This document shows positions 1 to 5,151 of a stretch of DNA of 5,151 bases, one piece after another. How positions within the stretch are numbered: position 1 is the first letter of the stretch; every line of letters starts with the position of its first letter. Source of the DNA: Dictyostelium discoideum (lineage: Eukaryota); assembly GCA_000004695.1 (NCBI GenBank), contig CH709168.1, forward strand, positions 1-5,151, given 5' to 3'. The notes beneath the pieces are model-generated. The model was not told where the DNA came from. It searched no databases and saw only the letters and a list, made by a program, of their open reading frames with translations. The position numbers and the translations under genes are program-made.

Positions 1-2
1 TA

Positions 3-461
3 ATGAATTTCCACTTGTTTTTATATTATCCAATTTATATAAAAAATTGGGGTGCACCAAAATACACTTCAGCTGAAACTTTTGAAGCACAATTATCAAG
101 AATTAAAAATTATTTAAATAATAATACAAATAATAGGGATGAACAATTTGAAAGGGTTACCAAATTAAACATGGTGAAATTTTTTAATTCAGTAGATAAA
201 TTAAAAAGTATTGAACCTGAAAGTACAGCATTAATTATTGGTAACAAAATAAAAAATCCAGATAATTTAGATAACATAAAAATTAAATTAGATTCATTAT
301 TTCAAAATTATAAAAATTTAACTTTTAACTCATCAATTAAAAATAATAAAGAAATATACAATGTTGGTGATGCCGTTGAAGTTGCATCATATAATGAACT
401 TTCAGGTAGATGGTCAGGTATTATCAATTCAATATCAATGATTGAAATGGATGATAACTAG
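3..461 (+). CDS. Hypothetical N/K-rich protein, 152 aa from the first ATG. It may be 5'-truncated, because the frame could be open upstream of the window start.
   Basis: Longest ORF in an AT-rich segment with yeast-like codon use. No recognisable motif and no similarity to the FLP N-terminal domain. The poly-N tract (NNNTNNRDEQ) is typical of AT-rich eukaryotic or plasmid proteins. Confidence 0.3.
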   Translation: MNFHLFLYYPIYIKNWGAPKYTSAETFEAQLSRIKNYLNNNTNNRDEQFERVTKLNMVKFFNSVDKLKSIEPESTALIIGNKIKNPDNLDNIKIKLDSLFQNYKNLTFNSSIKNNKEIYNVGDAVEVASYNELSGRWSGIINSISMIEMDDN

Positions 462-706
462 TAAAACATGAAATATTATTAAATTATTTTGACAAATATG
501 TTGGTGACCAATACCATTTTCTTTCAAATAAATTATTTTACATATGATAGTATTCTAAATATAGTTATACCAATTCAAATTGATGATACCAATTACCTTA
601 TAATTTACAAATACCATGATATATAATTATGACTGGTATTCACAAGTTGCTCCCTTCATCTGCAAAGTATAAAGAGATATAGGATGCAAATCAAGTATTC
701 AAGCAC

Positions 707-1307
707 TTGTCTACTATCAAAGTTATCCCCAAGTACATATACACTGCGCTATTAAACAAGACACTTGTACTCTTGAAAATGTTTGGTTTATCAAGATCAT
801 CAGACTTAGTGAAGTGGTCGTTCAAAGGTCTCATTATTACTACTGACTCAATCAAAGGTCCAGTTATCAATGCTAAAGAACAAAGAAGTGGTGTTGTTTC
901 AATCTTAGAATTAACATCGTTAGATGATACTAACTCTCAAGTATGTCCTGTTCGACCTTGCAACATACCTTAGAGCCTCTAAAGGAAGAAGAAAGCCCCA
1001 TTGGGGTGACTCTGTCTTTATTAAGAATGAGGGTGAACCGCTCCAAGTTAATGATATAAATTCAATTGTATTATCAACACTCTCAAGCTCCGGTATTGAT
1101 ACTAGAAAGTTCAAATCTCACTCTATCCGTTCCGCTATGGCTTCTCTGCTGTTGTTCAATAACGTTCCGTTCCATGTTGTCAAGAAGATGGGTCGCTGGA
1201 AATCAAACGATACTGTAGATACCTTCTACGATAAAAGAATCATTGGTGAAAAATCTGGTGGTATTTTCATTGATACTGTCGTTCAAATAAATAAATGTTA
1301 TTCATAA
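707..1307 (+). pseudogene. Tyrosine recombinase catalytic domain, FLP- or Crypton-like, interrupted by a +1 frameshift near 950-960 and lacking a proper ATG start.
   Basis: Translation gives GLSRSSDLVKWSFKG (box I Arg, compare FLP GRFSDIKNVDPKSFK), then SQVCPVR, and after the frame change LATYLRASKGRRKP...KSHSIRSAMASLLL (H-x-x-R), GRWKS (the G-x-W) and the nucleophile Tyr in DTFYDKR. The R...H..R...W...Y spacing of ~150 aa matches FLP R191-Y343. Frame 2 (707-973) and frame 0 (924-1307) overlap, so one base is missing or added near 950-960. The only possible starts are TTG at 707 or an ATG at 779, just before the catalytic Arg. Confidence 0.6.
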
Positions 1308-1321
1308 TATATATATATATT
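1308..1321. repeat. (TA)n dinucleotide microsatellite immediately after the recombinase stop codon.
   Basis: A tatatatatatat run read directly from the sequence. Confidence 0.8.
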
Positions 1322-1357
1322 TAATATAAAATATAATTTAATAAATTAAATTTTTAA

Positions 1358-1680
1358 TTCTCATTTAATACCAATTCACGTAGCCAACCTTCTCATAATG
1401 ACTCTGACACTGAGAATGAACAAAGTGATGATGAATCAAGTAACAATGTCGATGTTCCAACCGATTATCAATTATCCGATACCTTACTTGGTCAGTACAA
1501 ACATATGGTAAACAATCAAGGTTTACTCGTCAAAGAAGAATGTATCCTCAAGAAAGATGAGATATCCGAATTGAATAAAATATTCAATTTTCCATCTAAC
1601 ATCCAAGTGAATGTCGCTCCATTCGGTACACCTGAAGGTATTACTGTATCATTCAACGTCAAGAACAATGATACTGACTA
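1358..1680 (+). CDS. Acidic S/D/E-rich ORF fragment of 107 codons, open from the preceding stop, with no in-frame ATG until codon ~50. It is a possible C-terminal exon or a pseudogene.
   Basis: Open frame reading ...HNDSDTENEQSDDESSNNVDVPTDYQLSDTLLGQYKHMVNNQGLLVKEECILKKDEISELNKIFNFPSNIQVNVAPFGTPEGITVSFNVKNNDTD*. Codon use is coherent and yeast-like (TTA, GGT, CCA, GTC). A 37-codon ATG-initiated ORF lies in another frame at 1397-1510. Confidence 0.3.
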
Positions 1681-1735
1681 GTTATTAGTCAATGACAAGT
1701 GGTTGGTGAAAGGTTTACAGGTGGAGTTGTATTGA

Positions 1736-1777
1736 CCACCATGACCTTAGTCAAGTAGCGCATTGTGTCACGTAATT
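1736..1777. repeat. Left arm of a 42-bp inverted repeat. The inner 30 bp (1748-1777) are perfect.
   Basis: tagtcaagtagcgcattgtgtcacgtaatt is the exact reverse complement of 1979-2008. The match extends to 40/42 identity over 1736-1777 versus 1979-2020. Confidence 0.9.
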
Positions 1778-1978
1778 GGGATAAGATCAACAGCATTAAC
1801 AGGCTGGCCTGCCTTTGATGAGGCGTTAGGTAACGAGTACACATTTTCAGAAGTGATGGTCAGGTTCATACTACGCTCCGTTCGCGTTTGAACTTCAGGC
1901 TTAACGCAGAAGGTATATATAACGATTCTATTCATTTGAACTACGGTATTGTTGATCTTAATCGTGGGCGTGTATCCG

Positions 1979-2020
1979 AATTACGTGACACAATGCGCTA
2001 CTTGACTAGGGTCATGTTGG
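1979..2020. repeat. Right arm of the 42-bp inverted repeat. It encloses a 201-bp core (1778-1978).
   Basis: aattacgtgacacaatgcgctacttgacta is the reverse complement of the left arm. The whole element spans 1736-2020 (285 bp). Confidence 0.9.
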
Positions 2021-2030
2021 CTTAATTGAA

Positions 2031-2059
2031 AGAGGGGATGTACTACATCCTCTTTTTTT
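2031..2059 (+). terminator. Rho-independent terminator-like hairpin followed by a T7 run.
   Basis: agaggggatg tacta catcctct followed by ttttttt. The stem is ~10 bp with one G bulge or G-U pair. No A-tract precedes it, so it is unidirectional on the + strand. Confidence 0.5.
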
Positions 2060-2095
2060 GATCTATTGATATGTAAAGTTTTACACAGTACCGGA

Positions 2096-2101
2096 TATAA
2101 T
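2096..2101 (+). promoter_or_regulatory. Perfect sigma70 -10 hexamer TATAAT. The -35 is weak: GTAAAG at 17 bp, or TTTACA at only 10 bp spacing.
   Basis: Hexamer read from the sequence. No convincing -35 is present, so this is speculative. Confidence 0.2.
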
Positions 2102-2136
2102 GTGTAGGGATAACCTCTCTGCATGCAAGTACTCCA

Positions 2137-2559
2137 AAAGATTAAAATTATTATGACGAAGATTAACACCCTCATTAAGGGTATGGCTTGACCAGAACAC
2201 ATGTTATCCCCTTATTTTTCTTTTAAGTCAATGGAGGAATGTCATGCCATGTAAATCTTTTGATTTTGGTAACTGTACAAAACGCACTGCAGCGGCCGAT
2301 AAAGCCAAGCGAGATGCTAATCCAATTCTTCGTACTCAGTTACTGAAGAAGATTCGTTAATGACTGATCGGCAAGCCAGCATCTCCAGAATGGTAGAACT
2401 GGATCTCTTGGTAGATCAGCATTAAAAGCCAAAAGACACAACTTAACCCAGAACATATTGCCATGATAATCGAACTGCTTGGTGAGGGTAATTGCAGAAA
2501 TGCTTAATATCGATAGATCAAAAATATTCCGTTATCGTAAAGAGAACGGTATCGTATAG
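2137..2559 (+). pseudogene. Decayed serine recombinase of the DNA invertase / resolvase family (Hin/Gin/Cin-like). It carries several frameshifts and stops, and the N-terminal catalytic Ser region is missing.
   Basis: Frame 0, 2157-2360: TRLTPSLRVWLDQNTCYPLIFLLSQWRNVMPCKSFDFGNCTKRTAAADKAKRD..., compare Gin [36 protein letters not shown]. Frame 1: NGRTGSLGRSALKAKRHNLTQ, compare NKGRIGGRPPKLTKAE. Frames 2 and 1: IIELLGEGNC / RVIAEMLNIDRSKIFRYRKENGIV*, the typical C-terminal HTH ending ...IA..L.IsRSTiYRY. The VW motif at 2181 to the C-terminal stop at 2559 is 378 nt; the equivalent distance in Gin is ~375 nt. The only intact piece is a 38-codon ORF at 2244-2360 with a GGAGG Shine-Dalgarno site at 2233-2237. 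Confidence 0.5.
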
Positions 2560-2562
2560 CTC

Positions 2563-2595
2563 AAAAAGACCAGCCAATAACACTGGTCTTTTTTG
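2563..2595 (+). terminator. Intrinsic terminator immediately after the invertase-remnant stop codon.
   Basis: aaaAGACCAG ccaataaca CTGGTCTttttt. A 7-9 bp stem, 9-nt loop and T5 tail, preceded by an A-run, so it could act on both strands. Confidence 0.6.
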
Positions 2596-2754
2596 TAATC
2601 ACCAAACAATGATATCCGTTGCAGTTTTCCTGGTAGGAACTCTAAGACAACCTAAGTTCAATCAGTAGGGGTTAACCAGACCTTTTGGTGAAGTGTTAGT
2701 ATTGACTGTAATAGCTATAGAGCTACGTGAAATTCGAATGGGTGTCACCCAATT

Positions 2755-2844
2755 GGAGAATTGTCCGAGTGGTTCAAGGTAACGGTCTTGAAAACCGTCG
2801 GGCGGGAAACCGCTCCTAGAGTTCGAATCTCTAATTCTCTGCCA
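2755..2844 (+). tRNA. tRNA-Ser, anticodon UGA, type II with a long variable arm and genomically encoded CCA.
   Basis: Acceptor GGAGAAT/ATTCTCT, then G and CCA. Anticodon stem ACGGT/ACCGT with loop CTTGAAA. Perfect T-arm TAGAG-TTCGAAT-CTCTA. GGTCTTGAAAACCG and GAGTTCGAATCTCT are near-identical to E. coli serT. Positions 1-72 form a G-U pair and 10-25 a U-U pair, both slightly unusual. Confidence 0.85.
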
Positions 2845-2975
2845 ATTAAGATCTAAAGAAATCGCTATACGGTCACGAACGGGGATCGATAAAAGCCTAA
2901 GAGTGAAAGCCTCTACCGTTCTCTCAAACAGGGTTCAGCACTCTGTCTATAACGTATAAAGGAAAAGGAAAGATA

Positions 2976-3263
2976 ATGGCTACTAAGATTTCAATTACCC
3001 GTGCATTGGCCACAGTTAAATCCATGTCCAACGGTCTGATGCTTATTTCACTAACTCGCGGTACTGATGAGTTCGCCCAAGAAGCTGGTTTCAATGATTC
3101 CGTTGGGGCGGTTTCTGATGCGATCAAAGAAAACTACCAGGGTTTACAAGATATCATTCGTGTGCATGAAGATATCCTTGCTAAAGTGATCTTGTCCAAC
3201 GATACTACGCTTATTACCGTAGCTGGCAAAGAATACTGTGTGGTGTATTCTTTGCCACGATAG
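2976..3263 (+). CDS. Hypothetical protein, 95 aa.
   Basis: ATG preceded by AAGGAAAAGGAAAG (Shine-Dalgarno-like). E. coli-like codon usage (CGT, GGT, CTG, AAA, GAA). No recognisable motif. Confidence 0.5.
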   Translation: MATKISITRALATVKSMSNGLMLISLTRGTDEFAQEAGFNDSVGAVSDAIKENYQGLQDIIRVHEDILAKVILSNDTTLITVAGKEYCVVYSLPR

Positions 3264-3270
3264 GGAATCG

Positions 3271-3543
3271 CTAATCTGGGAATTCATCACGACGCATTAC
3301 ATCAGAAGAGACGTTCTGAACAAACACGGTAATCTGTGCAATTAAGTAATTGCTTACAACAGCGAGTTCGTCTTTGGCAGCTTTCAGACCAAAGATAACC
3401 GACTCACCCGTAATACATTCTGCATCAGCAAAAGTCAATGCGGTAGCAATTATTTGTACGGCAGATGCACCATTATACTCCTCAAGTGACGAAACCACAG
3501 AGGCAGGGTTAACTTCAAGTTGGCCAATTTCAATAGCTGCCAT
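3271..3543 (-). CDS. Hypothetical protein, 90 aa, convergent with the previous ORF across a 7-bp gap.
   Basis: Coherent codon usage. The overlapping + strand ORF (3350-3631) is S/A/T-rich and low-complexity, so the minus frame is preferred. The ribosome binding site is weak. Confidence 0.4.
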   Translation of the reverse strand: MAAIEIGQLEVNPASVVSSLEEYNGASAVQIIATALTFADAECITGESVIFGLKAAKDELAVVSNYLIAQITVFVQNVSSDVMRRDEFPD

Positions 3544-3656
3544 AACTCTAGCCTATAACTCTTGTGCTTTTGTTTCGTTCATGGATGTACGCACAAAAAG
3601 CAAATTTAAATTTAATTTAAAGCGAATTTAAAGTCCTGTACAAAAGCAATTTTTAA

Positions 3657-3734
3657 GGTAATTTTAAAGGTAATTTTTAAGGTTACTTTAAAACCACCTT
3701 ATAAATTACCTTTATAATTACCTTAGAAATTAAC
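3657..3734. repeat. Array of a 12-bp motif, three direct copies followed by three inverted copies. Together with flanking AAAGCAATT half-sites it forms a ~110-bp imperfect palindrome (~3640-3752).
   Basis: Direct copies: GGTAATTTTAAA, GGTAATTTTTAA, GGTTACTTTAAA. Centre: aCCACC. Inverted copies: TTATAAATTACC, TTTATAATTACC, TTAGAAATTAAC. The latter are reverse complements of the same motif. Confidence 0.75.
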
Positions 3735-3828
3735 TTTTTAATTGCTTTAAAAGCGAGGTCCTGAGTTCGAAGCCGTTATTTAACGGATAAATTTTATAAA
3801 AATTTTTTTTGAATTTTTTGAAAATTTA

Positions 3829-3870
3829 CCAAAAGGGTAGTCTCATCAATCAAAGGGTAGTCTCATCAAC
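3829..3870. repeat. Two tandem 20-21 bp direct repeats (iteron-like).
   Basis: caAAAGGGTAGTCTCATCAAt immediately followed by cAAAGGGTAGTCTCATCAAc. A 7-bp inverted repeat TCATCAA...TTGATGA follows at 3864-3897. Confidence 0.8.
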
Positions 3871-3998
3871 CATTACACCATTTGATTGCTTTGATGATAA
3901 TTTAAAAATGATAGAATATTTTATCCCCATTTTTTTGATCTAAAATTAGATGTTTTTTATTAAAAACCTTAAATTTATATTTAAAGGAAATTTTAATT

Positions 3999-4042
3999 CA
4001 CTTTAAATCTACTTTAAATCAACTTTAAATCCTCTTTAAAAT
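3999..4042. repeat. Four tandem 10-12 bp units with a CTTTAAAT core, phased at the helical repeat.
   Basis: cactttaaat, ctactttaaat, caactttaaat, cctctttaaaat. Similar TATCTTAAAA(A)T units occur at 4075-4097. Confidence 0.7.
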
Positions 4043-4056
4043 TATTTTAAAATAAT
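4041..4056. repeat. 16-bp perfect palindrome ATTATTTTAAAATAAT.
   Basis: The sequence equals its own reverse complement. Confidence 0.85.
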
Positions 4057-4162
4057 TTTTAAAGGCATTTTTAAATATCTTAAAATTATCTTAAAAATTA
4101 CCTTGAAAATGAATTTTTTAAACCCGGCTTTAAATTCAATTTAATTCCAATTTAAATCAACT

Positions 4163-4184
4163 TTGCTTTAAATTTGCTTTAAAT
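4163..4184. repeat. Tandem duplication of the 11-mer TTGCTTTAAAT.
   Basis: ttgctttaaat followed directly by ttgctttaaat. Confidence 0.8.
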
Positions 4185-4249
4185 GTGGATTTTTCTGTGC
4201 TGCACATGCACATAATGCATTAGGCGAGAAACGCGATATTGTCAAAGCT

Positions 4250-4453
4250 TTGAAAGCCAACTACGAATCGATATCTCGTCACAACGGTAACTCCAATTTT
4301 GACCAGCGTGAAAATACCGCGCGCACCGAAGCATTCAACGGTACTAAGAAAGCCGATGAAGCTTCCATTGCTGTGTTCGTTAATCCAGTTATCGAACGTT
4401 ATCAGCCAGGCGTGCTGTATCCGCTGGAGATCAGCAAAGTAATCAAGCAGTAG
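4250..4453 (+). CDS. Hypothetical protein, TTG start per the ORF track. The frame is open from 4172 and resumes after the TAG at 4451 for 29 more codons, to 4543.
   Basis: E. coli-like codon usage (CTG, CGT, CCG, GGT). No ATG anywhere in frame from 4172. The TAG at 4451-4453 is followed in frame by EKEILDFEANIDYALTESTKIEIVDGVVV*. Confidence 0.4.
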   Translation: MKANYESISRHNGNSNFDQRENTARTEAFNGTKKADEASIAVFVNPVIERYQPGVLYPLEISKVIKQ

Positions 4454-4776
4454 GAAAAAGAGATTCTGGATTTCGAAGCCAACATTGATTACGCGTTAAC
4501 TGAATCTACCAAAATCGAAATTGTAGATGGTGTGGTAGTTTAATTAAATTAAAAAGCTTGTCTTCGTTTGACGAATAGTCGAACACCGCCCTTGGGAGGT
4601 TAAACCACCAGCTCACTATATACACGCTGTGGGTCGATGGTTCGAGTCATTTCTGTGGAAACACAGTAGCTCGGTCGGTTATAGCAATAGTCAAAACATT
4701 AAATAAATAACACCTAGCATGATCCAAATTACAGAATGTGGTATTCGATATCACCACGTCCGTAAGATTAGTATAT

Positions 4777-4807
4777 AGGATGGTTTTACCCCTCCTGGTT
4801 TTATTTT
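4777..4807 (+). terminator. Weak terminator-like hairpin followed by a T-rich tail.
   Basis: AGGATGG ttttacc CCTCCT ggttttatttt. The stem is imperfect and not associated with any upstream ORF. Confidence 0.2.
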
Positions 4808-5057
4808 GAGATGAATGTCCGTCATTAGGCACCCTTAATAGCGGAAGGCGGTGAATTGGAGACTTGGGACGTGGCTGAAAGTATGCCAGCAAATAACCGA
4901 CGCTTACACTTTGGTGTAAGTAAACCACAATCAACCGCGTAGCATCTAAAAATAAAAGAACAATGACAGAAGCACTTCCGATATTACGTGGTTGGGTGTT
5001 GTAGAAGTCTGACGGTCAACCCCGCCATCGGTCACCTATTAAGAGGATTAGTTTACC

Positions 5058-5151
5058 ATGGAAATTCCAAAAAGCTATGTGGCAACTGATTTTAAATATG
5101 TTAACAACCAACCTTATGTGCGTGGTCAGCGTGTATTAATAATAATGCCTA
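5058..5151 (+). CDS. 5' part of an ORF running off the window (MEIPKSYVATDFKYVNNQPYVRGQRVLIIMP...).
   Basis: ATG preceded by AAGAGGA ~11 nt upstream. The frame is open to the window end. Confidence 0.4.
   Translation, partial: MEIPKSYVATDFKYVNNQPYVRGQRVLIIMP

Follow-up and report, generated by a model that had tools for sequence, protein, structure and literature searches.

The palindromic array of 12-nt repeats in the stretch of Dictyostelium discoideum DNA analyzed here (positions 1 to 5,151 of contig CH709168.1, assembly GCA_000004695.1; the whole 5,151-nt stretch is called the window) is a conserved block of subterminal repeats belonging to a short D. discoideum DNA transposon with many copies, present in the window as a damaged copy, and its units are likely to be protein-binding sites. 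Coordinates are positions in the window unless a locus label (L003-L011) stands before them.

The repeat array and the short element that carries it

The array spans positions 3643-3748 and is built of 12-nt units with the consensus GGTAATTTTwAA, three of them direct and three to four inverted, flanked by mirrored AAAGCAATT elements. An earlier, sequence-only reading of the window had described three direct and three inverted 12-mers with a CCACC center and mirrored flanks at 3640-3752, and the DNA is as it describes. A repeat search identified inverted arms of 45 nt with 84% complementarity (3639-3683 and 3696-3740), together with a direct repeat family of 12-nt spacing, and Tandem Repeats Finder (TRF) detected period-12 arrays at 3648-3683 and 3699-3741. 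With up to two mismatches allowed, the unit GGTAATTTTTAA has ten matches in the window, seven of which lie within 3645-3734; dinucleotide shuffles gave 2.15 ± 1.46 matches, and ten or more were reached in none of 200 shuffles. The segment 3636-3756 is predicted to fold into a 44-bp hairpin. For DNA the energy is -28.1 kcal/mol (z = -7.8) and for RNA it is -40.6 kcal/mol (z = -8.6), the z values being taken against shuffles of the same segment, and in neither form was any of 200 shuffles as stable. These values bear out the earlier judgment that such an arrangement does not look like a chance product of AT-rich DNA: the array is real, non-random and far above chance, and it is able to form a hairpin or the cruciform that had been suggested.

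This array is one part of an AT-rich block of about 610 nt (approximately 3592-4204, 14-24% GC), which also holds a larger array of 11-12-nt units and a tandem duplication of 20 nt (Table 1). In blastn searches the block matches DNA in L003, L005, L007 and L008 with 81-90% identity over about 545 nt, and at least 12 further copies lie at other places in these loci, every one with the palindromic array. Four further D. discoideum loci, retrieved through a neighboring protein family, supplied at least ten full copies, and our alignment comprises 13 copies of the short element, the window copy and 12 others, from around 120 kb of loci. The ten full copies are 732-761 nt long, start with CACAGCGAAGAAAAAACCACCTTTAAA, end with TTTAAAGGTGCATTTTTCTTTGCTGTG, and carry terminal inverted repeats (TIRs) with the termini CACAG...CTGTG. 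Nine of the ten are flanked by identical 2-bp sequences, where about 0.1 per copy would be expected by chance. One filled site, L008 6851-7609, in which the element lies between ...TTACAT and ATTAAAAATG.., can be paired with an empty paralogous site at L004 17100-17150, where the sequence ..TTACATTAAAAATG.. is uninterrupted; this pair demonstrates a 2-bp target-site duplication. The short element contains no open reading frame (ORF), no tRNA called by ARAGORN and no Rfam match above threshold. It is a non-autonomous class II TIR DNA transposon resembling a miniature inverted-repeat transposable element (MITE), with TIRs, a target-site duplication and matching empty site, and a short, non-coding, multi-copy form that shares its termini with coding elements.

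The copies differ mainly by whole-unit insertions and deletions of 12, 14 or 36 nt. Their consensus reads, in order, AAAGCAATTTTAAA, GGTAATTTTAAA, GGTAATTTTTAA, GGTTAC, TTTAAAATCACC, TTAAAAATTACC, TTTAAAATTACC, TTTAAAATTACC and TTTTTAATCGCTTT, the inverted units being TTTAAAATCACC, TTAAAAATTACC and the two copies of TTTAAAATTACC. B-box-like motifs are present as GAGTTCGAAGCC at 3763-3774 in the window and as GGGATTCGATCCCC in other copies. Full copies (for example L007 6581-7341) contain, on the minus strand of the element core, the anticodon-arm-like sequence ACCCT-TTGATAG-AGGGT followed by a B box, GGATCGAATCCC.

The window copy is 100% identical to L003 10585-11240, and a second copy, which lies inverted relative to it at this locus, is split by the retrotransposon DIRS-1 (L003 651-795 and 5546-6066). 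In the alignment only the right TIR of the window copy is complete, and its last two bases deviate from the consensus; the outer left TIR is short by about 20-27 nt and the right arm by about 110 nt of units, and the tRNA-like segment with the B box is missing. Having lost its left terminus and sitting inside a decayed phage-derived gene, this copy is inert.

Larger elements, their protein and the family name

The same termini delimit three larger elements, L004 13384-17255 (3.9 kb), L005 9218-14251 (5.0 kb) and L006 8979-14558 (5.6 kb), of which the short element is a deletion derivative. They carry the same 12-mer, with the core ATTACCTTTAAA, arrayed at both ends, and the unit recurs within the TIR proper (..ACCACCTTTAAA). 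When matches to the core ACCTTTAAA with at most one mismatch were counted, and those within 500 nt of an end were taken as near it, 20 of 22 matches in L004 and 24 of 27 in L005 were near an end, in both subterminal regions. The orientation of the units varies: L004 has 13 one-way units at one end, L005 has 11, and the short element has a palindrome. The unit sequence stays constant throughout; this points to the unit rather than the hairpin as the functional entity.

The larger elements encode a protein of around 750-830 aa, found in Dictyostelium only and falling into two subfamilies about 50% identical, along with a second ORF that contains an intron. A locus of the second subfamily, L011 (3465-3750), has a similar CACAG terminus and a different 13-nt subterminal unit, GTATACTTAATAA, again direct and inverted, which fits the prediction that a binding protein and its site co-evolve; this comparison is tentative, as the right end of the second-subfamily element was not found. 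Next to this array, L011 3750-4180 holds several segments that resemble tRNAs and have A- and B-box-like motifs, in which ARAGORN calls no tRNA, and one copy of the short element, L008 20737-21496, sits within a 13-nt unit array of the second subfamily.

The sequence comparisons suggest that the 750-830-aa protein is distantly related to transposases of the CMC (CACTA/Mirage/Chapaev) superfamily, so that the family would lie in or near CMC. A profile search covering 1.84 billion representatives returned distant relatives, three of which carry PF02992 Transposase_21 (CACTA 'tnp2') above threshold and others of which have weaker matches to DUF4218 or DUF1258. Aligned with hhalign, the profile of 17 Dictyostelium proteins (A1) and that of the relatives (A2) matched over 415 columns with a probability of 99.4% and E = 4.9e-21, a score that is somewhat inflated because A2 was built from matches to A1. 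A search of PDB sequences with the transposase gave no match. The hallmarks of CMC include C(2)C, LH and H(4)H motifs, CAC...GTG termini and a short duplication (PMC4079192). The Dictyostelium protein contains C(2)C (CHTC), LH (DILH) and HxxxH...FE (NFHLLLHY...SAETFE) motifs, which it has in common with the distant relatives, the last placed where H(4)H is listed (PMC4079192). The ends CACAG...CTGTG, with their 2-bp duplication, show the pattern expected of CMC, CAC...GTG termini with a duplication of 2-4 bp. Mirage elements, for their part, make 2-bp duplications.

We consider it likely that the block is a DDT-family element, probably of the short form 'DDT-S', a name given here on the strength of published descriptions. 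Glockner et al. reportedly catalogued DDT-A, DDT-B and a short DDT-S in 2001, and we take the length of DDT-S to be around 0.8 kb. The putative DNA transposons of D. discoideum comprise three families, Tdd, DDT and thug, and DDT-type transposases have been reviewed as resembling no known family (PMC5633606); the distant link to CMC found here departs from that description. DDT elements make up approximately 20% of Dictyostelium centromeres (PMC2665215), and the DDT-B consensus, 5471 bp long, contains an A/B-box motif to which TRE5-A, a retrotransposon that targets tRNA genes, is drawn (PMC9012585). Our assignment draws on the same organism and the same kind of location, all loci being rich in DIRS elements and the setting a DIRS-1-rich centromeric one; on the size of the 5.0- and 5.6-kb elements compared with 5471 bp for DDT-B; on the presence of two protein subfamilies and a short non-coding form; and on the A/B-box-like motifs and tRNA-like segment, in which neither ARAGORN nor Rfam finds a tRNA. 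The tRNA-like segments of these elements are probably the A/B-box motif of DDT-B that TRE5-A targets (PMC9012585). The family thug-S, considered for its microRNAs (miRNAs), is described with an intron-bearing gene and, as no sequence evidence tied it to the element, was not adopted.

Function of the array and competing explanations

By analogy with better-characterized transposons, the 12-mers would most likely be binding sites for a protein encoded by the element itself. The units could be bound by the N-terminal zinc-finger region of the transposase or by the product of the second ORF, and the protein, once bound, would cover these subterminal stretches and bring both ends together for cut-and-paste transposition, in the manner of TNPA on the 12-bp motifs of maize En/Spm. 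The head-to-head form may have arisen by inverted duplication of a module made of AAAGCAATT and units, a module that also precedes the one-way array in L004, and whole-unit changes in number could occur through slippage. The earlier proposal of an array read by a multimeric protein remains the best and a plausible one; its more specific suggestions of an origin or partition site are not supported, the DNA being eukaryotic and nuclear.

Several observations weigh against this interpretation or some part of it. That a protein binds the units is argued by analogy with En/Spm. The copies are young and near-identical, such that their conservation says little on selection for the array, and in the 5.6-kb L006 just 10 of 19 core matches lie near an end. 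In the window copy the right arm has uncompensated changes, and the left terminus and the target-site duplication are missing, so insertion here by transposition is not demonstrable; the neighboring scrambled segment of 355 nt implies at least one further rearrangement at the site. As to the protein, Pfam has no match to the Dictyostelium element proteins, the AlphaFold model of the transposase has a mean predicted local distance difference test (pLDDT) score of 37 and is unusable for a fold search, and the profile score is inflated as described above. The names 'DDT' and 'DDT-S', finally, rest on descriptions rather than on a Repbase or dictyBase consensus.

An array without function, produced by slippage and inverted duplication in AT-rich transposon DNA and carried along by amplification, is an unlikely but not negligible explanation. 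The whole-unit indels between copies are typical of slippage, the high similarity of the copies could reflect recent amplification alone, and the surrounding DNA (14-24% GC) is rich in periodic repeats of 11-12 nt. Such a by-product does not account well for a unit that, in the 3.9- and 5.0-kb elements, keeps to subterminal stretches of a few hundred bases at the two ends, that recurs within the TIR, and that is kept across short-element subfamilies and elements of autonomous size, nor for the different unit that a sister subfamily has in that position.

It is slightly less probable again that the hairpin is the functional entity, either as a transcript whose double-stranded stem of around 44 bp feeds an RNA interference or miRNA pathway that silences the family, or as a DNA foldback that aids transposition or replication. 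Its stability is high (z about -8), the palindromic arrangement is retained in all short copies, there are sub-threshold Rfam matches to transposon-derived miRNA precursors, such as mir-548, and thug-S, another Dictyostelium DNA transposon, gives rise to multi-copy miRNAs (PMC4894637; PMC6161686). These Rfam matches, which include mir-548 and mir-3938, are nevertheless below the family thresholds throughout, the best scoring 37.8 bits against a gathering threshold of 90 in the window and 42.4 against 94 in the L007 copy. Changes in the arms are uncompensated in both the window copy and L008 12519-13277, where no compensatory changes were seen, and the larger elements have their units as long one-direction arrays without a hairpin. 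Rfam matches in the insert to group I or group II introns, or to other structured RNAs, were likewise all below threshold, and these candidates were rejected.

We give little credence to the idea that the 12-mer arrays and adjacent B-box-like motifs have been co-opted as cis-acting elements of chromatin, centromeres or origins that a host protein reads, instead of or in addition to an element protein; this idea derives from the construction of Dictyostelium centromeres from transposons, with DDT contributing about one fifth.

The proposal that the array is an iteron-type origin or a ParB/parS-type partition site or, in a eukaryote, a centromere or origin element, is the least probable of all, and is favored by appearance only. 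Ordered short repeats in an AT-rich block do resemble iteron arrays, and the region is of the centromere type, of which DDT forms around 20% in Dictyostelium (PMC2665215). The window, however, matches the opening 12 kb of the 4.9-Mb D. discoideum contig JBTAPE010000033.1, which is rich in DIRS-1, at 99.77% identity. It is nuclear DNA of a eukaryote, drawn from repeats of the centromere type, and neither a plasmid nor a phage replicon. No Rep, ParA or ParB gene lies near the array among the ORFs of the window, and hence no adjacent initiator or partition gene. Searched by megablast and blastn against 50,697 phage records, the window and the insert gave matches for the tRNA and for a single short segment, and for nothing else; a search of the plasmid collection gave no match, nor did exact-pattern scans of viral contigs. 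The array belongs to a mobile element that has TIRs and makes 2-bp duplications, is dispersed in at least 12 other copies and is damaged in the window copy, which is essentially the dispersed-repeat outcome that the sequence-only reading had itself set against an origin or partition site.

Surroundings of the element and comparison with known systems

On JBTAPE010000033.1 a complete DIRS-1 retrotransposon lies upstream of the window, and DIRS-1 clusters mark the centromeric chromosome ends of D. discoideum (PMC2665215). The Pfam Phage_integrase match in the window falls within the first of its two DIRS-1 fragments (Table 1). About 3 kb of jumbo-phage-like DNA with 42-46% GC (1690-3236, 3237-3591 and 4195-5151, continuing to the contig end at L003 12330) is interrupted by DIRS-1 and the DDT-type element, within AT-rich centromere-type repeats.

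Table 1. Features of the window in order of position (LTR, long terminal repeat)
Feature	Position	Strand	Basis
Pseudogenized C-terminal third of a transposase of the same family, broken by a DIRS-1 fragment at 625	1..624	+	94% identical to L004 15616-14978; ORF matches P0004 residues ~605-831
Two juxtaposed DIRS-1 fragments	625-1690		tyrosine-recombinase end and LTR start 625-1354 (91.6% to full copy); 5' ORF1 region 1358-1690 (95.5%)
tRNA-Ser(UGA), bacterial/phage type, encoded 3' CCA	2755-2844	+	Rfam 48.6 bits; 76-84% identical to many phage tRNA-Ser genes
N-terminal half (residues 1-100) of jumbo-phage-like gene, phrog_1491	2976..3254	+	2976-3263 matches phrog_1491 positions 1-95
Extra 355-nt segment, 42% GC, scrambled piece of other phage-like DNA	3237..3591	-	absent from paralogue in L004
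Damaged copy (~612 nt) of ~760-nt non-autonomous TIR element, MITE-like, DDT-S-like	3592..4204	+	alignment with 12 other copies; blastn
Inner remnant of left TIR AAAGCAAATTTAAATTTAATTTAAAGCGAATTTAAAGTC; outermost CACAGCGAAGAAAAAACCACCTTT gone	3597..3635	+	copy alignment; inverted repeat with 4116-4164
Left boundary module AAAGCAATTTTTAA, including AAAGCAATT (3643-3651), itself a degenerate unit	3643..3656	+	sequence; module also before 12-mer array in L004 13384-17255
Direct 12-nt units GGTAATTTTAAA (3657-3668), GGTAATTTTTAA (3669-3680), GGTTACTTTAAA (3681-3692)	3657..3692	+	kept in all family copies
Inverted units TTATAAATTACC (3699-3710), TTTATAATTACC (3711-3722), TTAGAAATTAAC (3723-3734)	3687..3734 including fourth	-	sequence; family alignment
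Fourth inverted unit TTTAAAACCACC, degenerate, overlapping the center	3687-3698	-	family consensus
Palindrome center ..ACCACC..	~3693-3698		sequence
Mirrored boundary module TTTTTAATTGCTTT, including AATTGCTTT at 3740-3748	3735..3748	-	sequence; inverted-repeat search; family copies
Conserved core after palindrome: B-box-like GAGTTCGAAGCC (3763-3774) and small hairpin CCGTTATTTAACGG (3773-3786), then T-runs	3763..3786	.	invariant in aligned copies
2 x 20-nt direct duplication AAAGGGTAGTCTCATCAAyC, window copy only, in place of tRNA-like GGGATTCGATCCCCCGACCC segment of other copies	3832..3871	+	repeat search; TRF; copy alignment
Right subterminal region: 11-12-nt unit arrays (CTTTAAAT.., TTACCTTAAAAA), both orientations	3958..4175	+	repeat search; TRF
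Right TIR GCTTTAAATGTGGATTTTTCTGTGCTGCA; consensus GCTTTAAAGGTGCATTTTTCTTTGCTGTG	4176..4204	+	copy comparison
C-terminal half (residues ~98-211) of phrog_1491-like gene, in-frame TAG at 4451-4453	4195..4543	+	4202-4540 matches phrog_1491 positions 102-207

The element sits in a split gene of this phage-like DNA. Joined, the two halves are colinear over 97% of their length, with 44% identity, with a 217-aa protein of the Erwinia jumbo phage Ea35-70 (YP_009004993), and alignments extend to proteins of other phages, most of them jumbo phages; a homologue in D. discoideum is the hypothetical protein ACTFIT_003263 (P0001) on JBTAPE010000033.1, and no close relatives were found in the viral contigs. 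A decayed paralogue, L004 9957-10505, is 90-92% identical and continuous across the junction, with the window up to 3236, where the DNA homology of the N-terminal half stops, corresponding to L004 up to 10137 and the window from 4195 to L004 from 10148. As the paralogue is uninterrupted, around 958 nt must have been inserted into the window gene, consisting of the element (3592-4204) and the 355-nt segment (3237-3591). Pieces of the latter are 95-98% identical to the Logan contig L009, which ends in a DIRS-1 LTR, with their order and orientation reversed. This segment lies outside the transposon proper, and since it is foreign to the element the splitting of the gene is a compound event of transposon insertion and rearrangement. 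The NCBI model ACTFIT_003263 (2976-4453) joins the gene halves and a reading frame from part of the 355-nt segment and treats the transposon as an intron; this exon-intron structure is an annotation artefact. Recoding of TAG, or a ciliate code, was considered for the in-frame stops and rejected: the homologues of the gene end at the place of its TAA, and frameshifts, deletions in the paralogue and transposon insertions point to pseudogenes.

Further features are scattered through the same DNA. Positions 4803-4901 share 76% identity with an intergenic stretch that lies 1.1 kb downstream of the phrog_1491 gene in the Salmonella jumbo phage SA002, and there are terminator-like hairpins at 2028-2058 and 2566-2596 and a frameshifted helix-turn-helix-like ORF at approximately 2420-2560. 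At the left edge of the phage-like DNA a 48-nt inverted repeat (1736-1783 and 1973-2020, 94% identity, with no Rfam match) encloses about 190 nt; a structured RNA, a small mobile element and the scar of a recombination event are all possible readings. The tRNA-Ser(UGA) gene might belong to the 'centromeric tRNA genes' noted, without explanation, in earlier work (PMC2665215). PHROG, Pfam and tblastn searches with the 355-nt segment and the other ORFs of the phage-like DNA yielded no family. Diverged paralogous copies of the phage-like DNA are present on another contig (L004 9957-10505) and in independent Logan assemblies (L009), which argues against contamination, and full-text literature searches found no report of phage-like DNA in a centromere-type region of Dictyostelium.

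The array is an ordinary component of what is probably an already catalogued transposon family in a model organism, the window copy is dead, and the finding itself carries little weight; its by-products are more valuable. The DDT transposases, unlike any known family according to the review (PMC5633606), can be tentatively linked to the CMC superfamily, and the subterminal units of 12-13 nt, which differ between the protein subfamilies, provide a concrete and testable model of recognition. A second by-product is the presence of decayed jumbo-phage-like DNA within a centromere-type region of Dictyostelium.

The array resembles iteron and parS systems in its phased short repeats, direct and inverted, in an AT-rich block that is plausibly read by a multimer. 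It differs from them in lying in eukaryotic nuclear DNA, without Rep or Par genes, as part of a multi-copy mobile element and with nothing similar in the plasmid and phage collections. The short element is also comparable to MITEs with internal palindromes such as human Made1, the source of mir-548, in being a short, non-coding, multi-copy TIR element with a long hairpin. The resemblance to mir-548 in Rfam is weak, with scores far under the gathering thresholds, and the hairpin here is an internal subterminal array, unlike that of Made1, in which the two TIRs pair.

The comparison with En/Spm and the CMC elements covers termini, repeats and proteins. The Dictyostelium termini are CACAG and not CACTA, the duplication is 2 bp and not 3 bp, and the unit sequence is unrelated to that of En/Spm; the Dictyostelium proteins lack a direct Pfam match to Transposase_21, and a homologue of TNPA was not identified. 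In both systems, however, the ends begin with CAC and finish with GTG and are flanked by a short target-site duplication. In En/Spm, as work by Gierl and Trentmann is said to have established, a subterminal 12-bp motif in both orientations is bound by TNPA, and the subterminal regions of the Dictyostelium elements are similarly dense in a motif of about 12 bp, direct and inverted. CACTA elements encode a transposase and an ORF2 that supports transposition (PMC4158355), and the larger Dictyostelium elements likewise have two ORFs. The probable distant homology of the Dictyostelium proteins to proteins bearing Transposase_21 adds a further likeness to CMC.

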